Assembly (NCBI GenBank): GCA_040954595.2 | Contig: CM082593.2 | Coordinates: 11,111,477 to 11,175,476, forward strand | DNA: 64,000 bases | Direction of reading: 5' to 3' | From: Balanoglossus misakiensis | Taxonomy: Eukaryota; Animalia; Hemichordata | In this document: positions 973-57,160 of the stretch, in pieces | How the letters are laid out: the number at the start of each line of letters is the position of its first letter | How positions within the stretch are numbered: the first letter of the stretch is position 1 | Program-made: the position numbers and the translations under genes | The notes under the pieces: model-generated | What the model was told of the DNA's origin: nothing | Database searches by the model: none | The model's input: only the letters and a program-made list of their open reading frames with translations

Positions 973-3004
973 AGATTGAAATCTTTGGAAGTTTGCACTT
1001 AGAGGGATGGCATGGCAGTTTTCCACTGTTCATATTACAAAGAATTTGGCGTCACGTGTAGATTTCATGAGTGTTCGAGTTTTGCTCTTCCCAGCCTCGT
1101 ACCCACAATCCTCTGATACTTACACTTACGTCAGTTCTATAACCGCTGACCCACTAGATTCTCCTTATGAATTGCCCAAATTATTTTTTGGTATAGTTTT
1201 GATAGTTAGTGCACGGAAACTTTTGATCGATTCACGAAATTCAAAATATGTTACATCACAAACCTCATAAAAAGGAGGCTAGAGTAGCCTGTTTGTTTTC
1301 AGGTAATTTTACAATTACCTCAATTACCTTTTTTGGAGGGAGGGGGTTAAGAAAACATACAGATTGAAATAACAAGGAAGTGGTATATCAAACCGAAACC
1401 TTATCTCAATCGTGATTCTAGAGTGTTTCCATGTCATGTGACATCCACAAAAATGTGGTATTATCTTGAAAAGAGTCCCGATTTCCCAAACTGGTTTTGC
1501 GAATGTACTTCACTTTGGAGCAATGCATGAGTACATTCGTAGAAAGATATTGCTCCACTATTTACTGACACTCCTCTTGTACTGCAAATATTACTGCATT
1601 CTGTCAGGGCAAGACAAAAGACACAGCAGAACTGCCAGAATTAAAACAGACAACTGGCAATTTCAATAAAACATGTAATAACAAATATATGTAACATTGA
1701 ATGAGGTGTCCATACAGCTTGGTCATTTAAAGACCTCCAGTCATTGTGACAATGCATAAATATTTATGTACACCATATTAAAAATTAGTTCAGGCATACC
1801 TTATACATGTATGTTTTTGACTGACCATATCCTCAGCACGCCCTTTTTTTCAAAAAGACTATCATTATTCTCTGCCAGGCAGAGAGTTGCCGCTTTCTTG
1901 TTAACAATAATATACTATTATAACATTGCATAGATTCCTGTTTGTTTCTGTCCATATCTCACAAACTGTGGTGTGCATACTGTTGAAATGACCTCAAGAA
2001 GAAAATGCCAAATGGAAAAATATTTGACATACTAACCTGTATGATAATGTTATACGGTACAATATATTTAACGGTTCCAATCCAATGTTGAGAACTAACA
2101 AAACAATTTGAGCAGAATTCATTTAAAATTAATTGCAGTTCCGTTTCACCGCATTTCATAGGATGCTGGCTAAAATTCATACTATGGTGGATTACCTGTT
2201 ATGCATTTCTTTCCCTATTTCGTCTGGCAGATTTGAGTTTGACAAGCTGTCATTTTCCTTTCAGCTCCGCAAAATTGATGGATTTACTTTGACAGCACAC
2301 AGACTGTCCATTTGTCATCGGAGATACAAGCAGCATCAGTTGCTGAACAGCTTGCAGCAGTGTTGGAAAAGAGTACACAACACTAACTTGCAAGAGTGCT
2401 TTGGCCCTTTCTTCACACTGTCCGAAACTTGTTGTGTTACATCATTGCTTAATGAATAAGAAATACACAGGTATTTAGCGTTCTATTCAATACCTACAAT
2501 AGATAAAAGGGTGTCGGTCTGTATGCGACAATCTTCAATGTTCTTATGAGCACAAGGCTTTATTCAGGGAACGTTTTACAGTAAGAATTATATGATATAA
2601 ACTGAATAAGTTTGTTGTCTGTCAACTCTTCTGTCTTTGTCTTACCGATACGGTTCTAACCGCAAACACTGAGGCTTCTCTGCTCGTACACAGTATAAAT
2701 CAATGGATGATAAAATGCGCCCTCTTTTGGTGAACTCTTCCTACCGCCCGACCTTCTACCTTACATTAAGGCATGTAGGGCGGTCAGGTAGATGGCAGTG
2801 TATTGCAAGCGTCTCTTGCATATTTTTTTCCGCCAGGAATGGCATACATTCGTTTTTGGCGACACCACAACTGCTGGAACTTCTCGAAAAATTGAGAGCC
2901 GGATTTCATAAATGCTCATGTTTTCCGAAGGGCTGAAAGAAGATCCAGAGTGGAATATTTAAATTTGCCTGTGGCAGACATCATAGTGGCTGCCAGTTAT
3001 TCTA

Positions 3005-3190
3005 TTTCTTGTGCAAGAGATAGTATCTTGTTCCAGCGAGATGTTTTCTCGTGTGCACGAGAAACATGCTATCTCGTGCATATCTCGTGCGCACGAGAAA
3101 ATTGCGAGCGCACTCGTGTTCACGAGAAAATATCACATGAACACGTAAGTCGTGCGCACGAGATAAAAAAATGTGCCCTGTAGTCTTTCT
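3005..3190. mobile_element. MITE-like fragment built of palindromic CTCGTGCGCACGAG subrepeats
   Basis: Five or more variants of tctcgtg(c/t)gcacgaga within 180 bp. Confidence 0.55.
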
Positions 3191-3700
3191 TAGGACATGG
3201 TAGCGTGACGTCGCATTGTAATTAACGGACGATCTTGGAAATTCGGCTATTAATGGTGAATGGACTTTCGCCTCCTTCGAACAACAACAGAGACTGACGT
3301 CGCAACAATGACAGAAAAAGTGAAGCAAATGGCCGACAAAACGAAGAGAATCGGAAAACGGGCAGGATCCTCGGCACAGACATCTGGGAATAATACCACC
3401 ACATCAAATAGAACGACGAGTAGTGCAGGACAAACCGCCACCAGTGACTATGACAACAAGTCTGAAGGCGATGCTGGCGAACCCTTGCACAATACAACTA
3501 CAGTCCTACAGAGAAATGCAGCCCAGCGCCACTCAAGATTTTCCATTCCTGGTCTGGCAGCAGCCAAAATATGTTGTTGTTTTTTCTCTTAGAAGCGACC
3601 TCAGTCTGAGCTGCATGAGAATAAACTGTAGGTTGGGAATACAACAAAAAAAACACGCAGTCGCTGCGAGTAGTATAGGTTGGAGCCGTAGCACTCTCAT

Positions 3701-4200
3701 TTGGGGAGGAGGAGCTGAGGAGGAGCTGAGGAGGAGCTGAGGAGGAGGCGGAGGAGCTGAGGAGGAGCTGAGGAGGAGCTGAGGAGGAGGCGGAGGAGGA
3801 GGAGCTGAGGAGGAGGCGGAGGAGCTGAGGAGGAGGAGCTGAGGAGGAGGCGGAGGAGCTGAGGAGGAGCTGAGGAGGAGCTGAGGAGGAGCTGAGGAGG
3901 AGGCGGAGGAGGAGGAGCTGAGGAGGAGGCGGAGGAGGAGGAGGAGGAGGAGGAGGAGGAGGAGGAGGAGCTGAGGAGGAGGAGCTGAGGAGGAGGAGCT
4001 GAGGAGGAGGAGCTGAGGAGGAGGAGCTGAGGAGCTGAGGAGGAGGAGGAGGAGGAGGAGGAGCCGTAGCACTCGGATTTGGGGAGGAGGAGGAGCTGAG
4101 GAGGAGGAGCTGAGGAGGAGGAGCTGAGGAGGAAGAGGAGGAAGTGGAGGTGATGTTGGGAGGAGGCAGAGGAGGCAGTGGAGGTGATGTTGGGAGGAGG
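3701..4200 (+). repeat. GA-rich (GAG)n/GAGGAGCT simple repeat in the subterminal part of the left arm
   Basis: Directly visible. The motif gagccgtagcactc..atttgggga occurs at about 3683 and 4061. Confidence 0.95.
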
Positions 4201-4369
4201 TGATGAGAGGCGAAGAAGGCCTATCACCCATCACCAAGTTCGATTGTGACCCGAGTAGCGACCCGAGTAGCTGCCGCTGACGTCATCCCATTCTAGTTCG
4301 CATGCGCATAAGCGTAACCCGGGAGATTTCAAACGAACGATACTAGCGTAGCAACCCATGTAAACAAAT

Positions 4370-6025
4370 ATGGCGACTGAGTTCGAAGATTTCTTGTTTT
4401 TGCGTACTTTTTTTGAGGATTTTGATGAATCTTTAGATTCTGCGGCAGTTTGGCAACTCCGAATAAATACTGCCATCATTGCCTCTCTGAGCTGTTTATT
4501 TTTGCGCCGAAAATACGTCCCGAAGATACAAAATTTTGCCGAAGATATCGTACCTCAGTATTCTTTGCAAGATTTTTGCATCCATTTCCGTATTTGCAAA
4601 GATATCTTCACGTTTGTTCTGGGGCGCATCGCCCACAAACTGGCAATAGAACAATGCGGTGGCCGCCCTCAAGTGCCTCCAGAAAAACAACTATTGGTAT
4701 GGATTTGGTACATGGTAAACCAGGAATCCATCAGAGAAGTTGGTCACATTTTCAATCTCTCCAAATCCACAGTCCATTCAACAGTAAAGCGTGTCACAAA
4801 AGCTATCATTGCTGTGATGAAAGATGTAAGTACATTGTAAAGTACATTTTCTAGATTATCTTCATGGATTATTTTTGAATACAAATATATTTTTACATTT
4901 CAATAATATACAGTTGGTGATGCATAATTTCAAGCTCTGTTTAATTATTGCTATCAAAGAACATATTAAAGGGGACAGTTAAAAATTATCCTTTAGCATT
5001 TTCTTTTAGTATTATGGTTCTCTGTGTCAACATTTTTTTTTCTACTGCACTCTGTATAGCAAGCTGAAATGTCCAATATTATGTTTGTCATAATTGTAGG
5101 TATGTGTAAAAATTATTGTTGACTAATGACTTATCAATATTTGTAGGTTATCAGGTGGCCAACACAAGAGCGACAGAGGGAGATTTCACAGAGTTTTCAG
5201 CTTGATTGTGGTTTACCAGGTATAGTGGGCATTATTGATGGCACTCACATTAGACTGGCTGGTTGTATTGGTGGAGCTCAAGATTATATCAATAGGAAAG
5301 GTTATCCATCCATGCAACTTCAGGTAAGAAAATTCATTTTTTAATTTTATAGAGAAAAATTTATATCTTCCATCATGACATGTGTCATTCTTGAATTTAA
5401 AAAATAAAACCTGTTGAAATGTTGGTTAGTCTCTGCCATTGAGAATTTTATCAAGTTACATAAATGTAGGAGATTCTTGACAAAAAGTGTCCTTTTTTTT
5501 CAGGTCATTGTTGATGATAATCTATTAATCACCAATGCATACACTGGATGGCCTGGTTGTACACACGATGCCCGTGTCCTTCGAAATTCTTCCCTGTACA
5601 CAAGACTGGAGACTAATGAAGTAACTATGGGTCCTGGGAGATACATCATTGGTGATTCTGCATACCCTTTGAGAGAATGGCTTATCACTCCCTTCAGAGA
5701 CAATGGATTTTTAACCATTCAGCAGCGCAGGTTCAATCGCGTCTTTTCATCCTGCCGTCAAAATGTTGAACGATCAATTGGGCATTTAAAGGGTCGTGTT
5801 AGGAGGCTCAGAGAATTGCCTATGCATAGTCCTGAAGATGTGTGTGAGACTATAATTTCTGGCTGTATTCTTCACAATCTACGTATTATCCATCATGATG
5901 ATGTGGAAAACTATATTGATTTAGATCCACAGCATATTGATGATCCAAACCAATATCCAAATGTTCATGTGAATGCACCTGGGGGTATTGCCAGAAGACA
6001 GCAACTCATGAATCATTTACATTAA
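4370..6025 (+). CDS. PIF/Harbinger DDE transposase (HARBI1-like nuclease), 3 exons 4370-4825, 5147-5323, 5504-6025, 384 aa, intact
   Basis: GT-AG phase-0 introns. The spliced product has an HTH region (ESIREVGHIFNLSKSTVHSTV) and the motifs VIRWP, GIIDGTHI, DYINRKGY, GWPGCTHDARV, IGDSAYPL, RQNVERSIGHLKGR and CILHNL typical of Harbinger transposases. Confidence 0.95.
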
Positions 6026-6976
6026 GAGTGTCAACATCATTAGGTATCTTAATGGATTGCCTTTCACACATGAAAATGAAACCTTTTTCTTGATTTAGTT
6101 ATAAAAATAAGTTATGCACTGGGATAAATGTTTTTTTATCATCTTGTTATGCATATTGTGTATTTGAAGTGTTAAGTGTGACTCTGGACATGAAATATTT
6201 ATTGATTAAAATATATATGGTTAAGTCGACACTGAAGGATTCAAAGCCTGACTTTCTATTGCTGGTAACATTTTAAATGTACAATCTTACCTGGATAAAA
6301 AAAAAACACACTTTATGTTTGTATATGATATAATAATTTATTGTAAAGGTTCAAATGTTTTTTAAAGATAAAGAATTCACTTTTATCCATCAATAATAAT
6401 AATAGAATAAATATTATAGACAATAAATACATTCATAAGTTATGCAATAATTACTTAATAAATAAAGAGTATCAATATATTAACTATAAACATTGAAAAT
6501 GACTTTGCATTTTTACGTTTGTTTTTCATAAGTTATGATGTAATAATTTCTAGTAATAAATAAAAAGTATCACATATTATTAACTATAAACATTGGTAAT
6601 GACTTTTGAATTTTTACATTTGTTTTTAAAGTTCAACGTCTTCATACATATAATACATACATACCATACATACATAAATGCCAACAGCAATGCTAATAAA
6701 TTATTTGAGATTTTCAAAATATTTTTTAAGGTTATCATGTGTACATGGAATAATTCTGATTAAAAATTGAGTTTGTCAAATAAAAAAAAAAATCATCACG
6801 AACATGTAGTATGAACATATAACACTCCAATAAAATTTTAACAATTGTCCAGAAATTCAGATACTTCTACAACTATAACAGTATCAATGAAAACGTTTAG
6901 TAACAATTAACTTTATGAAATATTTCATTTAGATAAAACATTTTTGAATTTTGTCAAATTTATTATACGGTAATCT

Positions 6977-7843
6977 TTAGTTCTTATTGACAGACTGCTC
7001 GTATAAATCCAACATTCTATCCATTCTTCTCATTTTCTCTGTATGTTGTTTTTCCATCATCCCAAACAAATCATCATTTTTATTTTCCATTTGTGTAATT
7101 GCAGCCATCAATTTATCTTGTGGGGATACTCTGTCGGATATTTTGTTTCTTTTTCTGTGTGTACGTGGTGTTGCATGTGTGTCAGATGTGCTTGGTGTTG
7201 CATGTGTGTCAGATGTGCTTGGTGTTGCATGTGTGTCAGATGTGCTTGGTGTTATCTCTGTAGGTTCTGTAGTTGTCATTTCTGTTGTTGTTTCTGTCAC
7301 TGTGTCTGTGTTATTTTTACTTTTGTCGGTCGTCAAATCAAGCGAATCCATCGTACATGTGGGCTGTGTCGATTCCTTCATCCCATATAAATTATCAAAC
7401 TCATTGAAATGTCGACATGTTTTCCTTTCTGCTCCAGTTTTCTTTCGGTTATCAATCACTTCCATATAATTTTTTTTAAATTTTTCCATTTATCCCTTGC
7501 CTGTGTGACAGACACAGAAACCCCCGCCTCTCCCTTTTAGACACAATGGACTGCCACAACTTCTCATGTCTAACACTAGTTTTAAATAAATCTTCCATGT
7601 CAGACCTCAACACTACAAGTAAATTTTCTTCTCTATCATTCCAAATGTGAATTCTAGCTACGTTTTCTGTGCTGTGTGATGTTGTTCCTGCTTTACTTCG
7701 TTCATGTGGTTGCTGAGTGTTTGTGTTCTTTTCACCTTGTCCTTGACTGCTTTGGTTCTGGTCGAGGTCTTGTACCTTTTCCTTTTGTTTTCCGTTGTGT
7801 GCTGCAATAGCTTGTGAAATGATAGCTTGTTTGATGTTAGAGT
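6977..7843 (-). pseudogene. Harbinger Myb/SANT-like (trihelix) DNA-binding gene, last exon only, two frameshifts
   Basis: Acceptor ttaacag precedes 7843. Reads WNDREENLLVVLRSDMEDLF...HEKLWQSIVSK / GEAGVSVSVTQARDKWKNLKK / NYMEVIDNRKKTGAERKTCRHFNEFDNLYG across three frames. Convergent with the transposase, with a C-terminal coiled-coil-like tail and a 27-bp x3 repeat (TPSTSDTHA). Confidence 0.85.
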
Positions 7844-8091
7844 CTGTTAAATATAAGAATGGGTATAGTCAAGACAAGTTTATTTCTATTTGCTCACCAA
7901 AACATGATTCTATCAGATTAATTACTGTTGAACTTGAATCCTTAGTACATAAAACCAAAAATGAAATTATTTAATTATAGTTCAGCTTTGTAGAGATATT
8001 TAGACATTTTACCACTTTTAGATGACCAACACAGAAAATATTTGTTTATAAACATAAGTGACGTGAGCGGACAATGCCTTAGACACACAGT

Positions 8092-8133
8092 CCCTAACCC
8101 TAACCCTAACCCCTAACCCTAACCCTAAGCCTA
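8092..8133 (-). repeat. Interstitial telomere-like (CCCTAA)n tract
   Basis: About 7 CCCTAA units, mirrored as TTAGGG at 11844-11885. Confidence 0.9.
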
Positions 8134-8149
8134 AAAGTGCATATAAATT

Positions 8150-9778
8150 GACGTAGGGGGGGGGGGTAAATTAGTCTTGTAAAATACTGTCTCTCTGAAT
8201 GTATACCTAGAACAACAGGGAAGTATTTGGTATCAAAAGAAAGCTTAATAAACAAGCTTTCCATTAATTACAAAATTAAAGTGATATGACAAATCATGAC
8301 ATCATAGTGACGTCATAAGTCAAAATACCCTTACGAAAATGATGTTCTGTTCACCTATAATTTGTATAAATGTGAGGTTTTGCAAAACACGTCTCTGAGC
8401 AATTGTACTGATGAAAACTGTGATGTGTTTGGTATCAACAGAAAGCTGATTGAGTAAAGTATCTAATTATTGCAAAATATTGATATAATAATCAATTACG
8501 TCATCATTACGTCATACTTCCAAGTACCCTTACCAATTAGTGACTATGATGACAAGTTATTACCCTAGGAGATAGGTGCCTTTAAAAAAAAAAAATTGGT
8601 AAGGAAGGTTTGTGAAGTCCATTCTATGTAAAAAATGGTGCTGATTCCAAAAAAGGCAGTCTTATTGACCCCACCCAAGACAAAATTGCCATTTTGGCAC
8701 TTTTTAACCCAAAAAAGGTCATTTTTAGAAAACACTAAAAACACACTGTTTTCGTCACATTCGAAGATCTGATGACATATGATATGCCTATTCTATGTAA
8801 AATTTGGTTGATATTACGAAAAAGGCAGTCTAACTGACCCCACCCAAGACAAAATTGCCGTTTTGGCACTTTTTAACCCAAAAAACGTCATTTTTAGACA
8901 AAACTGAAAACACACTCTTCTCTTCATATTGATTGATTTGATGATATATGGAAAGTCAATTCTATGTGTAAAATGGTGACTATAAAACATAAAGCAGTCT
9001 TTTTGACCCCAATCAATACAAAAATGCCATTTTTGGCCATATTTTTGAGGTCAAATAAGGTCATTTTTACAAAAAAAAACTAAAAACAAACTGTTTTCTT
9101 CATATTCAGAGATCTGATTATGTATGAAAAGTCCATTCTGTGTATAAAAAATCTGATTGACCCCATTCTAGTCAAATGTGCCATTTTTGCCACTTTTTGC
9201 CCCAAAAATGTCATTTTTAGAAAACACTCAAAACTTATATATTTTCTTCACTTTCGGAGATCTGATAATGTATTGTATACCCACCTTGTGTAAAATTTGG
9301 TAGGTATTCAAAAAAGTAGGTTTATTGGCGCCACTCAAGATTAAAGTGCGTTTTTTGGCAAGTTTTTGCCCAAAAAGGCCATTTTAAGAAATAAGCAAAC
9401 GTTTTTTTCTTTGTATTTGGAAATTTGATCATGTATGAAAAGTCCATTTATTGAAAAATTGCTGTTGACTCTAGAAAAAGCAATCTTATTGATCTCAATG
9501 AAGATGAAAATACTTTTTGCCCAAAAAGGGTCATTTTTAGAAAATACTAAAAACAAGCTATTTGTTTCCCTTTGGTGATCTAATAATAAATAAAAGTCCA
9601 TTCTATCTTAAAATTAGCGATTTTTCCAAAAAAGCACTCTTACTGACTCCACAGAGGGAAAAAATGCCATTTTGGCCACTTTGCTCAAAAAAGGTAACTG
9701 TTTGAAAACTTCTTTCTTTATTTTTCAGATCTTATGATGTACGGAGAAGGTCCATTTTTGTTGAATGGGAGCCGATTC

Positions 9779-9827
<49 letters not shown>

Positions 9828-11825
9828 TTCAGCCCTACAAAATTGTCATTTTGGCCATTTTTGGTCAAAAAGGTCATTTCAAGAAAAAATGAAAAACAAG
9901 CTGTTTTCTTCGTATTTAAATGTTTGATTATGAATGGAAAGTCCATTTTTTGCAAAAAATATGCTGATACCAACGCAACAGTCTTATTAAGACCCCACTC
10001 AATACAAAATTGCCACTAAGCCATCTTCTAGTCAACAATTGTCTTTTTTCAGAAAACAAAATAATTGGTGTTTTTTGCCTTTTGAGTTTTGATGTTATAT
10101 TTGCATATTTAAAATGTCATACCATATGATATCAGTTGAATTGATGATATTGAAAGGCAGAGTTGCCACAATTTGGCACATTTAGCCCAAAATGGAACTC
10201 AACAATAAAACGAGACGATCCATGTATTGACACTGTATACTATAAGTCGGTTATACATGGTATAAATTTTTTATGTACATCTATACCAGCTCCGGATAGA
10301 TTTTTGACATTTATCCTCTTCGTTCTGAATACAAAATCAGAAATTATATTATATCATGATACCTCCGTCATTTTGATTGGACACGGGTGCAATCCCACGA
10401 TGCTAAATACTCAATAGAGCTAAAACTGGCCCCTGAACTAGCACACAACGGGAAAATGTGGGTTTAAACCTAATAATTATAATAAAAACTCTTAAATTCC
10501 TTGACGTTTCAATTTGGAGATGCTCTAAGTGAATATTTGGGACTTTGCCATGTGCAGTGCCTGTCTTTTTGTCGCCTGTATCATGTTTAATGCTTGGTCC
10601 TGGGCGACGTGTTTAGATTCATCGATGCGACTTTGGTTCAATTCGTATAACTTCTTTTACTGTCGTTGCTGTGTCATCATCATTATGAGTTCAATTTGGG
10701 CTATCTCCAAATGCAAACATTTTTTTCTCTAGAAAATGTTTAAAATGATAAATTTGTCTTAAATAGGTCTTTTTAGGCAATAAATTACCAAAAACGCAAT
10801 TTTGACTAGAATGGGGTCAATCAGATTTTTTATACACAGAATGAACTTTTCATACATAATCAGATCTCTGAATATGAAGAAAACAGTTTGTTTTTAGTTT
10901 TTTTTTGTAAAAATGACCTTATTTGACCTCAAAAATATGGCCAAAAATGGCATTTTTGTATTGATTGGGGTCAAAAAGACTGCTTTATGTTTTATAGTCA
11001 CCATTTTACACATATAATTGACTGTCCATATATCATCAAATCAATCAATATGAAGAGAAGAGTGTGTTTTCAGTTTTGTCTAAAAATGACGTTTTTTGGG
11101 TTAAAAAGTGCCAAAACGGCAATTTTGTCTTGGGTGGGGTCAGTTAGACTGCCTTTTTCGTAATATCAACCAAATTTTACATAGAATAGGCATATCATAT
11201 GTCATCAGATCTTCGAATGTGACGAAAACAGTGTGTTTTTAGTGTTTTCTAAAAATGACCTTTTTTGGGTTAAAAAGTGCCAAAATGGCAATTTTGTCTT
11301 GGGTGGGGTCAATAAGACTGCCTTTTTTGGAATCAGCACCATTTTTTACATAGAATGGACTTCACAAACCTTCCTTACCAATTTTGTTTTTTTAAAGACA
11401 CCTATCTCCTAGGGTAATAACTTGTCATCATAGTCACTAATTGGTAAGGGTACTTGGAAGTATGACGTAATGATGACGTAATTGATTATTATATCAATAT
11501 TTTGCAATAATTAGATACTTTACTCAATCAGCTTTCTGTTGATACCAAACACATCACAGTTTTCATCAGTACAATTGCTCAGAGACGTGTTTTGCAAAAC
11601 CTCACATTTATACAAATTATAGGTGAACAGAACATCATTTTCGTAAGGGTATTTTGACTTATGACGTCACTATGATGTCATGATTTGTCATATCACTTTA
11701 ATTTTGTAATTAATGGAAAGCTTGTTTATTAAGCTTTCTTTTGATACCAAATACTTCCCTGTTGTTCTAGGTATACATTCAGAGAGACAGTATTTTACAA
11801 GACTAATTTACCCCCCCCCCCTACG
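8150..11825. repeat. Central AT-rich repeat with G11/C11 boundaries and degenerate ~160-170-bp subrepeats; contains the 1.6-kb non-palindromic spacer 9177-10800
   Basis: aagtccattctatgtaaaa...cagtcttattgacccc...gccattttggc...gtcatttttagaaaa recurs about 9 times between 8600 and 10090. No coding signal. Confidence 0.7.
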
Positions 11826-11843
11826 TCAATTTATATGCACTTT

Positions 11844-11885
11844 TAGGCTTAGGGTTAGGGTTAGGGGTTAGGGTTAGGGTTAGGG
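11844..11885 (+). repeat. Interstitial telomere-like (TTAGGG)n tract
   Basis: Mirror of 8092-8133. Confidence 0.9.
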
Positions 11886-12133
11886 ACTGTGTGTCTAAGG
11901 CATTGTCCGCTCACGTCACTTATGTTTATAAACAAATATTTTCTGTGTTGGTCATCTAAAAGTGGTAAAATGTCTAAATATCACTACAAAGCTGAACTAT
12001 AATTAAATAATTTCATTTTTGGTTTTATGTACTAAGGATTCAAGTTCAACAGTAATTAATCTGATAGAATCATGTTTTGGTGAGCAAATAGAAATAAACT
12101 TGTCTTGACTATACCCATTCTTATATTTAACAG

Positions 12134-13000
12134 ACTCTAACATCAAACAAGCTATCATTTCACAAGCTATTGCAGCACACAACGGAAAACAAAAGGAAAA
12201 GGTACAAGACCTCGACCAGAACCAAAGCAGTCAAGGACAAGGTGAAAAGAACACAAACACTCAGCAACCACATGAACGAAGTAAAGCAGGAACAACATCA
12301 CACAGCACAGAAAACGTAGCTAGAATTCACATTTGGAATGATAGAGAAGAAAATTTACTTGTAGTGTTGAGGTCTGACATGGAAGATTTATTTAAAACTA
12401 GTGTTAGACATGAGAAGTTGTGGCAGTCCATTGTGTCTAAAAGGGAGAGGCGGGGGTTTCTGTGTCTGTCACACAGGCAAGGGATAAATGGAAAAATTTA
12501 AAAAAAATTATATGGAAGTGATTGATAACCGAAAGAAAACTGGAGCAGAAAGGAAAACATGTCGACATTTCAATGAGTTTGATAATTTATATGGGATGAA
12601 GGAATCGACACAGCCCACATGTACGATGGATTCGCTTGATTTGACGACCGACAAAAGTAAAAATAACACAGACACAGTGACAGAAACAACAACAGAAATG
12701 ACGACTACAGAACCTACAGAGATAACACCAAGCACATCTGACACACATGCAACACCAAGCACATCTGACACACATGCAACACCAAGCACATCTGACACAC
12801 ATGCAACACCACGTACACACAGAAAAAGAAACAAAATATCCGACAGAGTATCCCCACAAGATAAATTGATGGCTGCAATTACACAAATGGAAAATAAAAA
12901 TGATGATTTGTTTGGGATGATGGAAAAACAACATACAGAGAAAATGAGAAGAATGGATAGAATGTTGGATTTATACGAGCAGTCTGTCAATATGAACTAA
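12134..13000 (+). pseudogene. Second copy of the Harbinger Myb/SANT-like gene, same two frameshifts
   Basis: Mirror of 6977-7843, with frame breaks near 12440 and 12500. Confidence 0.85.
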
Positions 13001-13948
13001 AGATTACCGTATAATAAATTTGACAAAATTCAAAAATGTTTTATCTAAATGAAATATTTCATAAAGTTAATTGTTACTAAACGTTTTCATTGATACTGTT
13101 ATAGTTGTAGAAGTATCTGAATTTCTGGACAATTGTTAAAATTTTATTGGAGTGTTATATGTTCATACTACATGTTCGTGATGATTTTTTTTTATTTGAC
13201 AAACTCAATTTTTAATCAGAATTATTCCATGTACACATGATAACCTTAAAAAATATTTTGAAAATCTCAAATAATTTATTAGCATTGCTGTTGGCATTTA
13301 TGTATGTATGGTATGTATGTATTATATGTATGAAGACGTTGAACTTTAAAAACAAATGTAAAAATTCAAAAGTCATTACCAATGTTTATAGTTAATAATA
13401 TGTGATACTTTTTATTTATTACTAGAAATTATTACATCATAACTTATGAAAAACAAACGTAAAAATGCAAAGTCATTTTCAATGTTTATAGTTAATATAT
13501 TGATACTCTTTATTTATTAAGTAATTATTGCATAACTTATGAATGTATTTATTGTCTATAATATTTATTCTATTATTATTATTGATGGATAAAAGTGAAT
13601 TCTTTATCTTTAAAAAACATTTGAACCTTTACAATAAATTATTATATCATATACAAACATAAAGTGTGTTTTTTTTTATCCAGGTAAGATTGTACATTTA
13701 AAATGTTACCAGCAATAGAAAGTCAGGCTTTGAATCCTTCAGTGTCGACTTAACCATATATATTTTAATCAATAAATATTTCATGTCCAGAGTCACACTT
13801 AACACTTCAAATACACAATATGCATAACAAGATGATAAAAAAACATTTATCCCAGTGCATAACTTATTTTTATAACTAAATCAAGAAAAAGGTTTCATTT
13901 TCATGTGTGAAAGGCAATCCATTAAGATACCTAATGATGTTGACACTC

Positions 13949-15604
13949 TTAATGTAAATGATTCATGAGTTGCTGTCTTCTGGCAATACCCCCAGGTGCA
14001 TTCACATGAACATTTGGATATTGGTTTGGATCATCAATATGCTGTGGATCTAAATCAATATAGTTTTCCACATCATCATGATGGATAATACGTAAATTGT
14101 GAAGAATACAGCCAGAAATTATAGTCTCACACACATCTTCAGGACTATGCATAGGCAATTCTCTGAGCCTCCTAACACGACCCTTTAAATGCCCAATTGA
14201 TCGTTCAACATTTTGACGGCAGGATGAAAAGACGCGATTGAACCTGCGCTGCTGAATGGTTAAAAATCCATTGTCTCTGAAGGGAGTGATAAGCCATTCT
14301 CTCAAAGGGTATGCAGAATCACCAATGATGTATCTCCCAGGACCCATAGTTACTTCATTAGTCTCCAGTCTTGTGTACAGGGAAGAATTTCGAAGGACAC
14401 GGGCATCATGTGTACAACCAGGCCATCCAGTGTATGCATTGGTGATTAATAGATTATCATCAACAATGACCTGAAAAAAAGGACACTTTTTGTCAAGAAT
14501 CTCCTACATTTATGTAACTTGATAAAATTCTCAATGGCAGAGACTAACCAACATTTCAACAGGTTTTATTTTTTAAATTCAAGAATGACACATGTCATGA
14601 TGGAAGATATAAATTTTTCTCTATAAAATTAAAAATGAATTTTCTTACCTGAAGTTGCATGGATGGATAACCTTTCCTATTTATATATAGTCTTGAGCTC
14701 CACCAATACAACCAGCCAGTCTAATGTGAGTGCCATCAATAATGCCCACTATACCTGGTAAACCACAATCAAGCTGAAAACTCTGTGAAATCTCCCTCTG
14801 TCGCTCTTGTGTTGGCCACCTGATAACCTACAAATATTGATAAGTCATTTTTCAACATTAATTTTTACACATACCTGCAATTATGACAAACATAATATTG
14901 GACATTTCAGCTTGCTATACAGAGTGCAGTAGAAAAAAAAATGTTGACACAGAGAACCATAATACTAAAAGAAAATGCTAAAGGATAATTTTTAACTGTC
15001 CCCTTTAATATGTTCTTTGATAGCAATAATTAAACAGAGCTTGAAATTATGCATCACCAACTGTATATTATTGAAATGTAAAAATATATTTGTATTCAAA
15101 AATAATCCATGAAGATAATCTAGAAAATGTACTTTACAATGTACTTACATCTTTCATCACAGCAATGATAGCTTTTGTGACACGCTTTACTGTTGAATGG
15201 ACTGTGGATTTGGAGAGATTGAAAATGTGACCAACTTCTCTGATGGATTCCTGGTTTACCATGTACCAAATCCATACCAATAGTTGTTTTTCTGGAGGCA
15301 CTTGAGGGCGGCCACCGCATTGTTCTATTGCCAGTTTGTGGGCGATGCGCCCCAGAACAAACGTGAAGATATCTTTGCAAATACGGAAATGGATGCAAAA
15401 ATCTTGCAAAGAATACTGAGGTACGATATCTTCGGCAAAATTTTGTATCTTCGGGACGTATTTTCGGCGCAAAAATAAACAGCTCAGAGAGGCAATGATG
15501 GCAGTATTTATTCGGAGTTGCCAAACTGCCGCAGAATCTAAAGATTCATCAAAATCCTCAAAAAAAGTACGCAAAAACAAGAAATCTTCGAACTCAGTCG
15601 CCAT
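13949..15604 (-). pseudogene. Second Harbinger transposase copy (exons 15604-15149, 14827-14649, 14470-13949), frameshifted in exon 2
   Basis: Exon 2 is 179 nt versus 177 nt in the left copy. It reads GAC TAT ATA TAA where the left copy has GAT TAT ATC AAT (about 14680-14690). Confidence 0.88.
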
Positions 15605-15774
15605 ATTTGTTTACATGGGTTGCTACGCTAGTATCGTTCGTTTGAAATCTCCCGGGTTACGCTTATGCGCATGCGAACTAGAATGGGATGACGTCAGCGG
15701 CAGCTACTCGGGTCGCTACTCGGGTCACAATCGAACTTGGTGATGGGTGATAGGCCTTCTTCGCCTCTCATCAC

Positions 15775-16252
15775 CTCCTCCCAACATCACCTCCACTGCC
15801 TCCTCTGCCTCCTCCCAACATCACCTCCACTTCCTCCTCTTCCTCCTCAGCTCCTCCTCCTCAGCTCCTCCTCCTCAGCTCCTCCTCCTCCCCAAATCCG
15901 AGTGCTACGGCTCCTCCTCCTCCTCCTCCTCCTCCTCAGCTCCTCAGCTCCTCCTCCTCAGCTCCTCCTCCTCAGCTCCTCCTCCTCAGCTCCTCCTCCT
16001 CAGCTCCTCCTCCTCCTCCTCCTCCTCCTCCTCCTCCTCCTCCTCCGCCTCCTCCTCAGCTCCTCCTCCTCCGCCTCCTCCTCAGCTCCTCCTCAGCTCC
16101 TCCTCAGCTCCTCCGCCTCCTCCTCAGCTCCTCCTCCTCAGCTCCTCCGCCTCCTCCTCAGCTCCTCCTCCTCCGCCTCCTCCTCAGCTCCTCCTCAGCT
16201 CCTCCTCAGCTCCTCCGCCTCCTCCTCAGCTCCTCCTCAGCTCCTCCTCCCC
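15775..16252 (-). repeat. CT-rich simple repeat, mirror of 3701-4200 with a different unit order and length
   Basis: Directly visible. Confidence 0.95.
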
Positions 16253-16814
16253 AAATGAGAGTGCTACGGCTCCAACCTATACTACTGCTGCGGTCAACAC
16301 GTAGCTATTAGTTTCGGTTTTATGTTCGCTACAGCTCGGAAACCAAAATGTGGTACAACTTCAAGCTACATAAACTGGAAAGCATAGTACGTGCAGAGCA
16401 GACCATGGTGACGAAAGCAGGTATTCTAGGTCGTAAGATAAAAACACGGCGCTAGAAAAACAGTCATCAAAAGTTGCACGTGTTCCCCGGCCAAAAATAA
16501 TGTAATTGTTGGCGCACAGAAAGTCCAGTCGATAAACGTTTACGCTATAGAAACTCACTCTCTCAGCAAAAGTCTGACACCCTCGTCAATGACAAAACGC
16601 AAACCGAGCTGGGTATGATCAAGTCAAACATAGGGCCAATCCCCACTCTGTGTTTTATTATTTTCCACATACGATGGTTCTAAATAAAAATGTACCTATT
16701 TGAAATGCTTACCGAGGTAAGATCATTGAAAGTTTTCAAACGTTGATGACAAATGTATAACTGATTTTTTACAAATGAATAATCGCGCACTTGCATGTTA
16801 TTTTCTCTATACCA

Positions 16815-17070
16815 GACACCGCGCGCGCGCCGTTGGCAAAAAAAAAAACGCGGAAAATTATTGAGCATGCGCAGTCGATACTTCACATTGTAAACAAGAT
16901 GGCGTCGCTGCCTATGCTTCTCGACCGCTGTCGCCTGACTATGTCGGCAAAGAAGAGACGAATTTAACCATGCAACGCCATATCGGAAGACAGAATGATC
17001 GCGAGATGAAACCGGGCTATCCAACGATTAGGCAGCCATGTTGACTGATTGGTATGTCGCCGAAGTAATT
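16815..17070 (+). promoter_or_regulatory. CpG-rich promoter-like island
   Basis: CGCGCGCGCG, NRF1-like GCATGCGCA and YY1-like CAAGATGGCG cluster in otherwise AT-rich DNA. No linked coding exon was identified. Confidence 0.35.
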
Positions 17071-17567
17071 ATTTGCCATTGATTTGTTTACCAGAAACGG
17101 TTTGCCTTTGGAACACATTTGGCCTCACCGAAATTGATTTCAGAGGTTTTTTCCCAAAAACTAATGACGTTCGTTTTCACCTGAGTGCGAGGATGGATTG
17201 AAGGGACACAAGCTTTTGTAGCCACCAATATTTTGACACTCTTTATATCAATGTTGAGCTGGCATATTTGCTCCAATATGATGTAGTGTACCTGTTGCAT
17301 TGAAATGAAGCTGTAATAATATTCCAGTGCAATCTAGTCCTTTGGGTTAATAGGAAAACGAGGTCAATAAATGACAGGTTTATTTAAATACAGGATATAT
17401 TTATCACAAGCACTTATGCATATGTATGAGATACTTATTTATTTTTAATTTATTTTTTATTTTTTATTTATTTTGTACGTTCAGGTAATCATATGGATTT
17501 GTATGGAATCACATACACATTAATTGAAGACTATCATATCACAGAAGTCGAGCCGCCAGATGTGTAA

Positions 17568-18305
17568 GGTAACCATTTAGGTTTCATGACTAAGTTTGTT
17601 TAAGAATTCATAAAGCTACCCAATGAATGAATTTCCTTAAAATTTCACAAATGTGACAGAGTTTGCAGTTGTGCAAGAAAGTGTGTATTATTCACATAAG
17701 AATTGTTTCGTATGCATTTTTCTGATGGCAATGCATTTGACTGTAAACAAATATGGATGTCAGTTAGTAGTGCTATTTTGTCAGTGAAATGGCTTCATCA
17801 TCATCCCTCCAACCAAAGTTGAAACAGAGTTGCAAATATTGCACAGCTTGAAATCATAAAATGTTGCAAAATTGAACCAACCCTTTGGTCAACGATTATG
17901 TTCTTACAGCTATTATTAGAACCAGACAGTCTCAGGGAACAAGAGACATGGGCCTGATTTGCAAGTTGAGTTAGAACTGCCTTTGCCTGCCCACGGACGC
18001 CCCAATTTCAGCAAAAATTATTGCATTAAAATATGAGTATGGAGAACTATGCTCTGTGTTTCTTTTGTTAGCTTACATAGCTGTTGTCATTCTAGTTTTT
18101 CCTCCGTCCTGTGAGCAGAGTTTCAGTTGCGAAAACCGACAGTTCTCAAAGTACAAAAGTACACCTAAATTGCCTCGGTGATGAGCATGCAGAATTTATC
18201 TGATGCTTCTTACTGGCAGAAGGACCCCACCAGTTGCAGATTGTGAATTCCATGGCACAAGGGAATTTACGCTTTGCGTTCAAATATAAATAATTAAATC
18301 CTGTA
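17568..18305. repeat. Left arm of a ~740-bp inverted repeat (partner 25993-26735)
   Basis: For example ctggcagaaggaccccaccagttgcagattg (about 18213) is reverse-complemented near 26055-26084. Confidence 0.9.
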
Positions 18306-18902
18306 AAATTATTCTATATGTTATTTATTGATGATTCAAAAGTGTTATGACTGATTGTGTTAGAGTACCTGTATTCCATATAAGCATGCTGTCAGTGCAC
18401 ATCCGATTGATAACAATTTCACATTTTTAAAAATTTGCTTCTCTGAATAATTATGAATACATAAAACTTCATATGATATAAATTGATAAACATTAAACCC
18501 CGATGCGTGGTATAAAAGACCCCCCAAATCAGTGGCGAATCTTAATACCGTTTGACTGACAACAGACAACACCAACGATCTTGGCTCTATGAAAATCGGC
18601 CCAAACAGATCCAAGCATAAAGAATTACACCACACAACGACAGTGGTTGGCTTTATAAACACACACAACATAAAGTTATCGATGAAAAAGTACACGAGCT
18701 TTTGAAACAACGATGATTTTGGGAGAAATCTGGTTTCAGTGCTTTTCAGAAGCATCCCTGGGAAACAATAACCACGCCATTCAAACAGCTGTCAATCGCA
18801 TAGAGGTGTAAAGTGTTCAATTATTTTCTATGTACATGAGATCAATTACACAGTTATTATGCACGACGACCACTCCCAAATAAACAACTGTACAAACACA
18901 CG

Positions 18903-19800
18903 TTAATCCGAACCCCAGTACTTTCCGCACCGGGGTTTAAGGCCTAATGCTAGTGTCACAACATTGATTACCAGACCGTTTCCCTCTGTATGTATGTATG
19001 TATGTATGTATGTATGTATGTATGTATGTATGTATGTATGTATGTATGCAGCCATGTATGCATGTGTTTGTGTGTGTGTGTACATGTGTGTATGCATGTT
19101 ACATGTATATATGGATGTATGTCTGCCCTGATCCAAAACATGAAACCACGCTTTTTTTATTTTGGTGTGTAGATGGGATTTTGCTTAAATGAAGTTGTCA
19201 TTGCAAAAATACGCAAATAACCTGTGAAATATGTGGAATTGATCAAAACTCAACAACTGGTTAGACTGCTTTGAACATTTGTATGCATGTAGGTAATGTC
19301 ATCATACCTGATATACTTTGAGTTTATATCGTGAATTGTCTATTTTTTATGCAATTATTTTGTCTTGTTTTACCATTTGAAAAAAAATCTTTTCCTCTTA
19401 AAGAGATTGGCTGATTTCTTTAGAATTTAGTATGACACTTCCGGTAGGTGATCTTAGTTGGTTTTGTTTAAATTGTCGCAGAATTTGTAATCTGTCATTT
19501 TTGGTCAAAATTCATTTTCTGAGAAACTCCTTAGATTGCTTTTAAATTTTGGTATGCTTGTTCCAAGAGGTAACCCAAGTAATGTTGTATATCATTTTGG
19601 TGAAATTTACATATTGTGGTCTTGGGGCAATTTTTGCAATTTGTATTCTTTGAAACTACTAGTCAGATTGCTTTCAACTTTGGGAGGCGTGGTGATTGAA
19701 GTAGATATTATACAATTTGTTGATAGTTGGATAGATGTGGTTTGAGGCAGTTTTTGTCATTGTTGAATGTTGTTTTCCCTAAAATACTTGTCTGGTTCCT
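18903..19800 (+). mobile_element. Helentron-associated/DINE-like non-autonomous element with (GTAT)n
   Basis: 5' hairpin aacccc...ggggtt, then (TGTA)n at 18987-19048, then subrepeats (tagtcagattgctttcaa) also seen at 25270-25640. The 3' end is uncertain. Confidence 0.55.
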
Positions 19801-20059
19801 TTGAAATGTTCTTACAGTAGGTCATATCTGCTTGCCAATGTCACATGATTTTTCCCATGAACACAGACATACCTAATTTTGTGTAATCCCCAGATGGGAC
19901 CACAGTGTGTAATAACCTGACCAACAGTGACTAGTATATCCTGTGTGTTATACAGTACTTCTCACAAGGTTGAAGTACATGTAGACTGTTGATGATTTTT
20001 TGCGATTCTTCAGAAACTTACAATACAGAGTCTAATGTGGTAACGTCCATGGTCACATT

Positions 20060-21555
20060 AGTCCTGTTTCAAAATGACCTACATTACACGTCCTATACAC
20101 ATGTTTTGCATGTTATGATTGGTTTATCCGCTTCTCTTAGGTCCACTTGCGGCACGCTGATTGGAGGGACCTTGTAGGTTAGGTCTTATTATTATGTATT
20201 ATTCACTAGACCTTGTAGGTTAGGTCTTATTACTATGCATTTTTCGCTTTACAGCTCCCTGATTGGTTAACGTGTCAGTCTGGTCCCCCATGTGTTCACT
20301 GCCTCATAATACAGGACCTTGTAGGTTAGGTCATATTAATATGTATTTATTCACCATACAGCTCCCTGATTGGTTAACGTGTCAGTCTGGTCTCCCAGTG
20401 TTCACTGCCTCATTGTGAAATGTCCCATGTGCTTCCTGGCTAGCGTTGTGGTAACACATTATTCGGTATGTCCGCAGATCATTCATTAATTTTCTGAGAA
20501 ATAGCCTGACTGATACTATCTCCAACATAAACTGCACCCTGGAAAGATTAAATGATTTTTAGATGGACTTTGAAAATCTGATTAACACATCTAAGCATTT
20601 TTGCTAACAGTTGTATATTTTCTTAAATCACCCTCCTACTTCTCATCATCAATATTATTATTGTTGTTTTACTATTTTAAAGTAAATTTGTTTTGACGTA
20701 GATGTTGTGAAAAGGAGTACGTTGTCCGTTTATACATTCGTATATTGTTTTCATAAAAATGGAACTATGACGGTGCAGCTTCATGAAAGAAGTACAATAA
20801 AAGTAATCATACCTGTAAAGCAACTAATGAGGTATCCCAATTAAAGAAATGCAATGCTATTCTAAACAGTTCTATTGTAAGATATTTTTGGTTTACTCGA
20901 ATGAATAGCACACACTTCGTATTCAGCCAGGTGTTACACGAAGTGATGCGCTGAAAAGCATTACGTAACAAAACACTAGCCCATTTCAACAAACCGCCAC
21001 TGGAAATAAAATAAAAAAATTCTCCTGGCAATTTTTATTTCGAGTATCTAGTTCACAGTATCACAAAAAAATGCCATGAATAGTGAAGGAAATGTTAAAT
21101 CCAATCATTATATGAGTGCCTTTCTTTATACACTGGGATCGAGCTTCGACAACGCGCAGGCAGCATGCCAGACAGAATACGACAACTGTATTCAGAAAGT
21201 ACAAAAGACTTTGCATAACGAGGCAGTGAAAATTGGAGACCTACACATTAACCAATCAGGGAGCTGACAATTGAATAAATGCATGTTAATAAGACCTAAC
21301 CTACAAGGTCCTGCATAATGAGGCAGTGAACACTGGAGGACCAGACCTACACATTAACCAATCAGGGAGCTGTAAAGTGAATAATACATAGTAATAAGAC
21401 CTAACCTACAAGGTCTAGTGAATAATACATAATAATAAGACCTAACACATAAGGTCCCTCCAATCACCGTGCCTCAAGTGGACCTAAGATTACCAGATGG
21501 ACCAATCACAGATGTCGGTACATATGTCATGGACCTGACTTATGAAACAGGACCG
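20060..21555. mobile_element. Foldback/MITE with long, internally repetitive TIRs
   Basis: 20135-20414 is the reverse complement of about 21215-21490. Subrepeats gaccttgtaggttaggtcttatta x3 and cagctccctgattggttaa x2 occur per arm, with weaker similarity further out. Confidence 0.75.
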
Positions 21556-22094
21556 TTCAGAACTACCTAGTCTATGCCCGGCAGTGTTCTGTCCGCTTTG
21601 CTTCCAAAACTAATGTCTGGCCTCACTCATGCCACTTGCCCAATAAACTAATACCCCTTGCTGGGAATTATGATGTAACTAGCGTCGCTTTGAAGCCTAT
21701 CACATTACTGAACAGTGTTGATTTGGTGTAAGATTATAGTGAAGGCAGGGCTTATTACATTGAAAATGCTACCCAACCTTAATTACACGTATGTATATCC
21801 TTTGTCTAATCATTGGAAAAACAATGTACATGTACCAAAGACTAAGTAGCTATTTGAAGGTGAATCGCAAGTGGGCACTTTTATTACTTAACCTCAAGCA
21901 GTCGGTTAGCTACCGTATACTAAGACAAACATTCCTGGTGTAATTAACATCACTGTCATTAGTAATATCTATCTCCAATGAGTATCAGTTCTGCCTTTAT
22001 GTTATTTTAAGTCAATTGTCAAGGTTCATGTACATATATTACAGCTTAACTGTCTTGTCAAAAACTTACGCATGTACATGTACCTAATTCTAGG

Positions 22095-23298
22095 CTTACC
22101 TGTAGGGTTAGAGATACAGTGTTTTATATTAATATGCATTAATATGAAACTAAAATTTGATGGTTAATTTAAGACCCCCCTGAGCAATGGTAACCTCGTT
22201 AAATATGTGCATATCTAATTCTAGGCTATTCAGCTGAAGTAGAAACCTGGACATGGACAACTTCGGGGTCAAAATCTTTTGACAAACATTTGTGTGATCT
22301 TGGGTAAACTTTGACCTACATTCCTATATTTTAGCATCCGGAGCAGATACAACCTTGACACTTGGAGTGATGGAACTATTTGATTGAGTATTATGTCTTG
22401 CCTCATTAATTATGTACTTACCTAATGCCAGCCTAACCAATAGGGCTGGAAGTCTGGCTTTTTGGACATGATAAATTTGAGATCAACATTTTTCTACAGC
22501 AGCCAGCCTTCTCTTAAAAAGAATGGACAATATAAAGGCTTTGATGGTATACTGAACTTTTGACTCCCTCCCTGAGACTGTGTGCCAATGACGGGATAGC
22601 CTACTCAGCGTTGGGTAGATCCTAAGAAGGCCTCAGCCAGGCATCAAATACAAAAAGCGGAAATCCAAGCTTTAATGGTGGGTTACATCGTTAACTTCCC
22701 TGCAGAGCTGATTTCTCAGACTGTGAGCCAATGACGGGTAAAGCCCCTAGGTAGGGGCCACCTAAGACAGGCCGGTCATGCTTTAATCACAAAGAAGGGC
22801 AAGTTTAGTCTTACCACAACTTTGTCTGCTGTATATGCTTCATAAAGATTGCAGAGTATTTTGAGAATACATTGTGTTAAGGCAGTGTGACCAGCTAAAA
22901 AGTACTGGCAAACACAGCCAATGTGTAATGAAAAACATCTAATTTGGCTGAATAAAAGACATAAAACACAGCAAAAGCACTGTGACTAGCTGAGACATAA
23001 TACTCCATTATGCAGTTCCATCACTCCAAGTGTCAAGGATGTATCTGTGCCGGATGCCAAGATATAGGAATGTAGGTCAAAGTTTACCCAAGATCACCCA
23101 ACATTTTGTCAAAAGATTTTGACCCCAAAGTTGTCCATGTCCAGGTTTCTACCGCAACTGGATAGCCTAGAATTAGATATGTACATATTTAATGAGGTTA
23201 CCATGGATCAAGGCAGTCCTAAGTAAACCATCAAATTTTTAGTTTCATGTTAATTCATGTTAATATAAAACGCTGTATCTCTAACCCACTGGTATGCC
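22095..23298. repeat. ~290-bp inverted repeat (22095-22385 / 23005-23298) made of a Helentron-like subrepeat
   Basis: For example cttgggtaaactttgacctacattcctatat versus atataggaatgtaggtcaaagtttacccaag. Confidence 0.85.
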
Positions 23299-23539
23299 AT
23301 TCTTTGTTTCATGCTACCCAATATGGGTAAGTAGGTAAAAAGTCACCCTAGGCCATTTGAAATTTTGCTGAAAAAATCTCGTCTCTTACATATGTACATT
23401 TGGTAAAAGGGAAATTTTAATCACGGAGTAGAACATATTCATAAAAATAGCGTCAAGGACACTGTGGTCCCATTTGAGGATTATGCGGAAACAGTGACAC
23501 ACCAGAATAAAAATTACAGGTGACATTGCAAGCAGATCT

Positions 23540-24290
23540 GCAAGCAGCAATAGCGGGCCCAAGCCAACATAGCACATAGCAACATAGCAATAAGCATATC
23601 TGCTCTGGATGCCAAGATATGGAAAAGTAGGTCAAAGGTCACCTGAGGTTATGTAAAATTTGGGCAAGAAATTTTGACCATATACTGGTCCATGTTCAAC
23701 GAAAATCAAACCTATAGCCCTATTGGTTAGCCTGGAATTAGGTATGCACATAATTAATGAGATATGCAGGTGTCACAGATGACCCCAAATTTTGGCTTTT
23801 CAATTTTAGTCCCAACCCTCCAAACGCCAAGTCTGTACCTGCTCTGGATGCCAAGATATGGTAAAGTAGGTCAAAGGTCACCTGAGGTCATGCAAAATTT
23901 GGGCAAGAAATGTTGACCCTATACTGGTCCATGTTCAACAAAAACCAAACCTATAGCCCTAATGGTTAGCCTGGAATTAGGTATGCACATAATTAATGAG
24001 ATATGCAGGTGTCACAGGTGACCCCCAATTTTGGCTTTTCAATTTAAGTCCCAACCCTCCAATCGCCAAGTCTGTACCTGCTCTGGATGCCGAGATATAG
24101 GAAAGTAGGTCAAAGGTCACCTGAGGTCACCCAAAATTTGGGCAAGAAATTTTGACCCTATACTGGTCCATGTCCCACAAGAACGAAACCTCTAGCCCTA
24201 TTAGTTAGCCCGGAATTAGGTATGCACATAATTAATGTGTTAAGAAGGTGTTACAGGTGAGCCCAAAATTTTGCCTTTTATTTTGGCTCC
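23540..24290 (-). mobile_element. Helentron-like non-autonomous element with three 240-bp tandem units
   Basis: End motif gcaagcagcaatagcgggcccaagc. Units begin ctgctctggatgccaagatatgg at about 23600, 23838 and 24078. Same family as 49330-51245. Confidence 0.65.
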
Positions 24291-24479
24291 ATTGTGCTCA
24301 CTGACCAATAGACAGTCACTGTACAGGACTATTGCACAGACCAGAATTCCACAATAAGACGTGGACATAGCTTAACCATAGAGGTATAAGTAAAGGTATA
24401 AATTTAATAAAAAGACTAAAAAATTCATAAAAAATAAAACATCCATGATATTAACTTAACACTTACAGGTCGATGTGAG

Positions 24480-24820
24480 GTTGACATATGGTACATGCTT
24501 ACCAATTTTTAAAGCAATCTGACGAGTAGTTGTTGACTTTCAGAGTTTTGATAAATTTCACATTTTCCCAGCTAATTTGCATATTTTTGGGCCTGGCAAC
24601 TTCGTTTGGACAAACTCCCATCTACAGCCCAGCCTGCACCTACACACCAAATATTGAGGTGATACGCGCAGCGGTTTTCAAGTTTTTGATGTGGACGGAC
24701 ATACAGACATACATCCATACATCCATCCATCCATCCATCCATCCATCCATCCATACATACATACAGACGCAACCGATCCCATAAGGTCCCATGGTATACA
24801 TGCCTATACCAATGGGACCT
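24480..24820 (-). mobile_element. Helentron-associated/DINE-like element: terminal hairpin plus (GTAT/GGAT)n
   Basis: Hairpin aggtcccatggtata...tataccaatgggacct at 24784-24820, adjacent to a microsatellite at 24698-24766. Confidence 0.6.
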
Positions 24821-56990: not shown

Positions 56991-57160
56991 ATGAAAAAAA
57001 GAGTCCATTAGCTGTGTGTTTGAGTATGAGTGTAATATATGTATGTACGTATTTATGCATGTATGTATGTAGCCAGCAAACATACAAAACATATTGTGTA
57101 TATTCAATTCCATACAGTGTTTGATAATAAATATGTTGCTGTTTTACAATTTGGCATTCA

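Follow-up and report, generated by a model that had tools for sequence, protein, structure and literature searches.

The question raised by this locus is how two near-identical, inverted copies of a PIF/Harbinger gene pair came to be joined into a palindrome whose outer ends are of another type. The palindrome lies near the left end of a 64,000-nucleotide (nt) stretch from the hemichordate Balanoglossus misakiensis (GenBank assembly GCA_040954595.2, contig CM082593.2, positions 11,111,477 to 11,175,476, forward strand); this whole stretch is called the window below, and positions are counted from its first base. We consider the unit likely to be a non-autonomous Polinton/Maverick derivative, in which a terminal inverted repeat (TIR) was probably extended by copying one arm and for which integrase was probably supplied in trans. 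Put simply, we probably have here a reduced mobile element of virus-like kind, and its end repeats are likely to have reached 5.5 kb when a second, damaged transposon was copied along with them.

In a self-BLAST of the window the palindrome appears as a single inverted match of 5.55 kb with 98.96% identity. Its outer parts are these:

3663..3668, plus strand: left copy of the target-site duplication (TSD), GCTGCG, placed by sliding the boundary
3669..9176, plus strand: left arm, 5,508 nt, opening with AGTAGT (self-BLAST and alignment)
9177..10800, no strand: unpaired spacer, 1,624 nt, with a run of 44 A at 9780-9823
10801..16286, minus strand: right arm, 5,486 nt, closing with ACTACT (self-BLAST and alignment)
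16287..16292, plus strand: right copy of the TSD, GCTGCG, placed by sliding the boundary

Global alignment of the arms gave 16 substitutions over 5,508 nt (0.29%) and eight indel events, three of them within a GGA array. Together the arms make up 10,994 of the 12,618 bases of the unit (87%). Symmetry opens with AGTAGT and closes with ACTACT, and GCTGCG is directly repeated just outside both ends; when the boundary was slid from -8 to +11, every other direct repeat measured 4 nt or less, and this one sits at the edge of the symmetry. With the boundary fixed, the chance of such a 6-mer is 2.7e-4, that of opening with either of two common Maverick end motifs is about 5e-4, and the joint chance is 1.4e-7.

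These are the features on which the Polinton/Maverick assignment turns. In vertebrate Mavericks (AGT)2//(ACT)2 is the commonest end, TSDs are 6 bp and TIRs measure 46-1,447 bp (PMC8097293). Measured against Polintons and Mavericks in general, GCTGCG has the expected 6-bp length and the ends carry one of the two expected motifs, (AGT)2//(ACT)2 or (AG)3//(CT)3, but TIRs of 5.5 kb exceed the usual range, which extends from some tens of bp up to about 1,500 bp or, in butterflies, about 2 kb. No frame for pPolB, integrase, ATPase, protease or capsid was found among the 60 stop-to-stop frames of at least 45 amino acids (aa) in 3669-10800 at a Pfam threshold of E<=0.001; of the two frames that did match, one hit DDE_Tnp_4 together with two DDE families related to it, and the other hit Myb_DNA-bind_4. 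At the symmetric outer boundary there is also no 3-bp TSD of the Harbinger kind (TTA/TAA, CWG or ANT). Judged by their bases, the outer ends would work like Polinton ends, because the Maverick end motif and the 6-bp TSD match and the TIR and TSD rules of the PIF/Harbinger group PHIS fail; on these grounds the unit is tentatively assigned to the Polinton family.

The outermost part of each arm has a composition of its own:

3669..4217, plus strand: terminal segment, consisting of the (AGT)2 motif, 36 unique bases and a purine-rich GGA/GAGCT array (inner boundary approximate)

Its 549 nt contain 305 G and 150 A, a sub-terminal motif is duplicated within it (at 3682 and 4060), and the two arms differ here by no substitution and three indels. 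No hairpin stands out in the first 62 bases (z 0.62). An initial annotation, made from the letters of the window, had described a palindrome with near-identical inverted arms, a GCTGCG repeat exactly where symmetry stops at AGTAGT/ACTACT, ends of Polinton/Maverick type with a 6-bp TSD, as opposed to the 3-bp TSDs of Harbingers, and the lack of pPolB, integrase, ATPase and capsid genes. Self-BLAST and arm alignment, the boundary slide, the comparison with vertebrate Mavericks (PMC8097293) and with the PHIS TSD rules, and the Pfam search agree with it on each of these points.

What the arms carry is a pair of Harbinger genes, present twice:

4218..4369, plus strand: presumed Harbinger 5' region (boundary inferred)
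4370..6025, plus strand: PIF/Harbinger transposase, left copy, with exons 4370-4825, 5147-5323 and 5504-6025 in an open frame
6977..7844, minus strand: Myb/SANT gene, left copy, exon 2 only, with two frameshifts near 7470-7530
12133..13000, plus strand: Myb/SANT gene, right copy, sharing both frameshifts of the left copy and likewise lacking exon 1
13949..15604, minus strand: transposase, right copy, frameshifted in exon 2 (179 nt versus 177)

The left transposase comprises 152+59+173 = 384 codons with GT-AG introns; this model matches protein P0001 and contains DDE_Tnp_4 (PF13359, E 1e-25). The closest named proteins are from the hemichordate Ptychodera flava, whose 384-aa protein is of equal length and 75-87% identical by exon. 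Both arms carry a substitution at residue 338, a near-invariant position that is the same in at least 90% of the 17 relatives in the alignment. The Myb gene is convergent with the transposase and matches residues 40-309 of protein P0121 across three frames, which amounts to two frameshifts; residues 1-39 (exon 1) have no match anywhere in the window. PF13837 was detected in the Myb frame at E 5e-4, below the curated cut-off, and the homologue P0121 carries this domain. Harbinger mobilization is reported to require both proteins (PMC2836001), and the pair is not autonomous because the Myb gene is truncated and frameshifted. The Harbinger genes are passengers that could not have moved the unit alone.

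The ends of this Harbinger are themselves incomplete. The sequence at 4218 opens like the TIRs of some related Harbingers and several read-derived contigs start at about 4236, but the partner end is absent from the arm: no inverted repeat scoring at least 11 was found between 3601-4369 and 7851-10800. Next to the presumed inner ends of the Harbinger, the flanking bases repeat in inverted rather than in direct orientation. For comparison we kept 80 transposase-related loci from metagenome contigs (27-48% identity), which are distant relatives on short contigs; 40 were checked for inverted repeats and 12 of those for TSDs. An inverted repeat flanks 22 of the 40, the longest being 62 bp, and none starts with AGTAGT. 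The relative L010 shows a TAA duplication, and the only 6-nt repeat at the 12 loci (L081) is the self-complementary start of the TIR itself. Blastn of loci L001-L101 against the window returned only short stretches of transposase exon and one 23-nt chance match.

A separate observation concerns the cluster P0014 of Lineus longissimus, which holds five near-identical transposases; among them are two same-contig pairs whose RefSeq numbers are near-consecutive (XP_064635180/182 and XP_064630792/802), possibly twin copies like those of the palindrome. Twin copies might be a trait of the clade, an idea that one of four clusters suggested and none of ten further clusters bore out.

Between the two Myb copies lies a third component:

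8083..11894, no strand: central non-coding repeat, with far greater read depth than the Harbinger part (outer boundaries approximate)

It includes telomere-like arrays, (CCCTAA)7 at 8092-8134 and (TTAGGG)7 at 11843-11885, and contains degenerate 169-bp units, about nine at 8621-10058 and three and a part, inverted, at 10770-11356. Long TIRs of tandem units, here in both orientations, around a non-coding middle with no Pfam match are traits of a foldback-type element. The exact symmetry of the arms stops inside one of the 169-bp units, and inverted homology of about 70% runs on for about 85 nt past the arm ends at 9176 and 10801 into the ends of the spacer. The young arms therefore end within an older inverted repeat.

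Two sets of read-derived contigs, X1 and X2, bear on the abundance of these parts; placements rest on 32 of 1,779 pieces, and depths are given for bins covered by contigs. In X1 the depth sums, which are not equal to copy numbers, ranged from 145-638 for those bins of the Harbinger part that contigs cover, through 1,335-5,440 for the spacer, to 9,290-43,714 for 8198-9302; X2 showed the same contrast from 8419 on. Given this contrast, the data point to the centre being a separate repeat, much more abundant than the Harbinger part. The jump in depth falls near 8100; contigs end at 8080-8082, next to the uncompared 8083-8141, and any TSD there would be masked by the mirrored flanks. The shallowest listed long contigs have depths of 13.7 (X1) and 88 (X2) and the deepest long Harbinger pieces 335 and 1,713; from these ratios the Harbinger family might number, very roughly, some twenty copies. 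One X1 contig (contig 3, 1,496 letters) could be placed only over 7224-8082, leaving 633 letters unplaced among the pieces listed, a mere hint that other Harbinger copies may continue differently beyond 8082. Another X1 contig (depth 403, short side 33 letters) passes from 9137 directly to 10820 on the opposite strand, so the inner fold occurs in read-derived contigs as well as in the assembly. Pieces of the central repeat in 8142-9315 were also seen at a depth of about 3 in runs X4 and X5, which carry a second organism label and come from one sample of another study; some have 1-3 differences over 150-325 bases and are either trace DNA or a shared repeat.

The same contigs help to trace the origin of the arms. 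Twenty-five variant sites at which contigs differ are listed for 4220-8082 (155 further rows, over all of the stretch compared with the contigs, lie outside this listing). Both arms carry the window's letter at 21 of the 25, the right arm having the contig letter at the other four, and each arm resembles its partner more than it does the main contigs of the family. Because of these shared letters and the shared Myb lesions, one arm was copied from the other, or both were homogenized; they are not independent insertions of two family members. By segment, and outside a patch at 5097-5290, arm divergence is 0/549, 0/879, 2/1,636, 3/1,106 and 5/1,094. The patch itself, 194 bases long, holds six of the 16 substitutions, a clustering with p about 0.002 by simulation. 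Two of the differences in this patch are synonymous in exon 2, and three carry the right-arm letter in an X1 contig. The clustering, together with the three matches to that contig, suggests that a patch in the left arm was later exchanged with another family copy.

The initial annotation had proposed that a captured Harbinger pair was duplicated in TIRs that had expanded over it. The pair is indeed in both arms, though in damaged form (the right transposase is frameshifted and the Myb gene broken), and the shared variants uphold the derivation of the arms from one another; replication, the route that it named, is one possible route, and copying on the chromosome is another.

On balance we favor, with some reservation, a working model in which a Polinton-type unit gained a Harbinger, the centre interrupted the Myb gene, copy-back made the palindrome and the product was integrated in trans. 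The order of parts along one arm is terminus, Harbinger genes and edge of the central repeat, and the other arm mirrors it. The ancestor would have had an ordinary terminus of about 550 bp and would have picked up the Harbinger near one end. An abundant foldback-like repeat would have split the Myb gene at its first intron. Pairing of this older inverted repeat on a displaced single strand could then have primed synthesis across the entire left part, the new copy taking the place of the original right part and of any Polinton genes and leaving two identical origins and integrase sites. Finally, the product would have entered, in one piece, a CpG-rich site that resembles a promoter.

It is also conceivable, though we think it unlikely, that the ends are of Polinton type but that the arms were lengthened after insertion, by chromosomal recombination or gene conversion between short TIRs, in which case this would be a one-off local structure and not a mobile one. 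The TSD would be retained under such a scheme too, Galileo elements lengthen their TIRs by recruiting internal sequence (PMC3573991), the substitutions clustered at 5097-5290 suggest patch exchange with another copy, and two more long inverted pairs in the window indicate that such structures are common here. However, a single 5.5-kb conversion would be required that also deleted all of the original internal sequence, and the low divergence extends over the full length of the arm, which is what a recent insertion with identical arms would predict. We give considerably less credence to insertion by some other enzyme that makes 6-bp TSDs, for example a hAT-type or integrase-like transposase, with AGTAGT as a coincidence. 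hAT TSDs of 5-8 bp are cited (PMC4482050) and the Pfam frames contain no Polinton sequence, but neither do they encode another transposase, and a start with a common Maverick motif has the chance of about 5e-4 given above.

That two inverted Harbinger copies moved as a composite transposon, by means of the transposase they encode, is very improbable. The left transposase frame is open, and the related Lineus longissimus cluster of five has its two same-contig pairs. However, PHIS elements have short TIRs, of 11-61 bp in the groups cited, and TSDs such as TTA/TAA, CWG or ANT (PMC3014272, PMC4482050), none of which the outer ends fit; the inverted repeats at 22 of the 40 related loci reach 62 bp at most and never start with AGTAGT; the presumed inner ends have inverted, not direct, repeats beside them; the Myb partner is broken; and ten other clusters lack a near-consecutive pair. 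We attach least weight of all to a fold-back artefact of assembly. No listed contig spans 4220-10830, but the differing unique flanks, the exact TSD, the unpaired spacer of 1.6 kb, the 16 arm substitutions and the inner junction in a read-derived contig all speak for a genuine structure.

Several considerations nevertheless weigh against our working model. A single insertion is known, and the link to Polintons consists of six terminal bases and the length of the TSD. Among the viral and metagenome contigs searched, no autonomous element has the terminus of the palindrome: (i) a 20-nt pattern of the terminus had one match in viral contigs, which lies within a phage gene encoded on the opposite strand; (ii) a 16-nt pattern had 20 matches there, none extending beyond 23 nt, which is the level of chance; (iii) a 26-nt pattern had none in metagenome contigs; and (iv) the transposase alignment gave 15 pattern matches in viral contigs and no confirmed relative. 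With regard to the reads, tandem units inflate the depth of the centre, about 75/100 of X1 and X2 was covered, the stretch compared was 4220-10830 without 8083-8141, and X1 and X2 are one sample, possibly the window's own source. Our data do not distinguish copying during replication from copying on the chromosome; precedents for copy-back are adenovirus end repair via embedded inverted repeats and the palindromic derivatives of yeast linear plasmids. In addition, arms of 5.5 kb are far beyond the 46-1,447 bp of intact vertebrate Mavericks (PMC8097293).

Polinton replication has been modelled rather than shown (model summary in 10.64898/2026.07.28.741278), and if Polintons use protein-primed strand displacement with panhandle intermediates, a palindrome without genes but with both ends perfect is what should result. 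The same unit at several loci would provide in vivo evidence for the replication model and for mobilization in trans, and would show concretely how DNA transposons may travel on virus-like elements. Homology-based annotation would miss such units or mislabel them as Harbingers. A bolder and rather doubtful extension is that there is a mobile family of copy-back Polinton genomes: gene-less palindromes that parasitize Polinton replication and integration much as defective interfering viral genomes do, double whatever DNA lies near an end, and in this way amplify cut-and-paste transposon genes and perhaps carry them from one locus, or one marine invertebrate host, to another. Taken as one locus only, the palindrome is an extreme rearrangement, though one that can be explained.

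The surroundings of the element may be described briefly. Its flanks are CpG-rich (observed/expected 1.0 and 1.3, versus 0.5 in 34100-49000) and resemble a promoter region, in which the element may sit. An open reading frame in the left flank (3260-3589) has no homologue among longer proteins, and no Rfam family matched within 3000-17500. About 600 bases to the right of the insertion, in CpG-rich DNA, 16890-16910 has a start-like context of the same kind as that before the transposase ATG. Further along, a second long inverted pair (17567-18360 and 25937-26735, within 17567-26735) is 91% identical and has the ends AGGTAACC…GGTTACCT with no obvious TSD; nested inside it are the pairs 20116-20424 / 21207-21508 and 22093-22398 / 22993-23298. 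A third inverted structure, 51508-54015 versus 57078-64000 (74-98%), is cut by the window end and contains 309-bp tandem units and a 2,038-bp direct duplication of 99.85% identity (59599-61636 / 61637-63673). A search for Polinton relics in these two neighbouring inverted-repeat units gave no Pfam match in any of the 32 frames searched, out of 44. The window also holds a satellite array at 28407-34092 (67 copies of an 86-bp unit, 96% matches) and, on the minus strand at about 40000-49300, exons of a host gene that encodes pentraxin and ephrin-receptor-like domains and that we take to be SVEP1-like.

How does the palindrome compare with known systems? Non-autonomous Polintons are present in Repbase. 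In titles and abstract openings, with Repbase and Dfam outside the scope, we found no description of a gene-less, mostly-TIR Polinton-type unit with duplicated transposon genes; supplements of the Maverick paper and of the preprints may list longer TIRs, which limits this negative. Vertebrate Mavericks (PMC8097293) share the (AGT)2//(ACT)2 ends and the 6-bp TSD, and the palindrome is near the lower end of their size range of 12,723-24,620 bp. It differs from them in lacking the core genes and in having TIRs of 5.5 kb instead of 46-1,447 bp, so that 87% of it is TIR. Gene-depleted remnants of virophages and polinton-like viruses that retain TIRs and TSDs have been noted (10.64898/2026.07.28.741278).

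With PHIS elements (PMC4482050) the palindrome shares a convergent DDE_Tnp_4 transposase and Myb/SANT gene, but it is without their short TIR pair and 3-bp TSD, its Myb gene is truncated and frameshifted, and its outer ends are of another type. Galileo/Foldback elements (PMC3573991) are similar in their long, internally repetitive TIRs, in TIR extension by internal recruitment and in a similarly modular centre, whereas their transposase is of the P family and the segments recruited are non-coding spacer rather than whole genes. Nematode Mavericks (10.1101/2022.07.12.499685) likewise carry intron-containing cargo beside the left TIR; this cargo is single-copy, host-like and next to integrase, and there is no palindrome.

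A further parallel is with butterfly polintons (10.1101/2025.02.07.637071), which have TIRs of about 2 kb with duplicated genes, and of which polB-less members with cargo of long interspersed nuclear elements (LINE) or long terminal repeat (LTR) elements stayed mobile. Transposon cargo, loss of polB and genes duplicated inside the TIRs are common to both. The butterfly elements keep other polinton genes, their LINE/LTR cargo is not described as lying in TIRs, and several insertions show their mobility; the palindrome, in contrast, has DNA-transposon cargo duplicated in its arms and one known insertion. The palindrome is real and young, and with transposable-element cargo, polB loss and gene-bearing TIRs of about 2 kb already reported in polintons, it is an extreme variant of what these elements are known to do.

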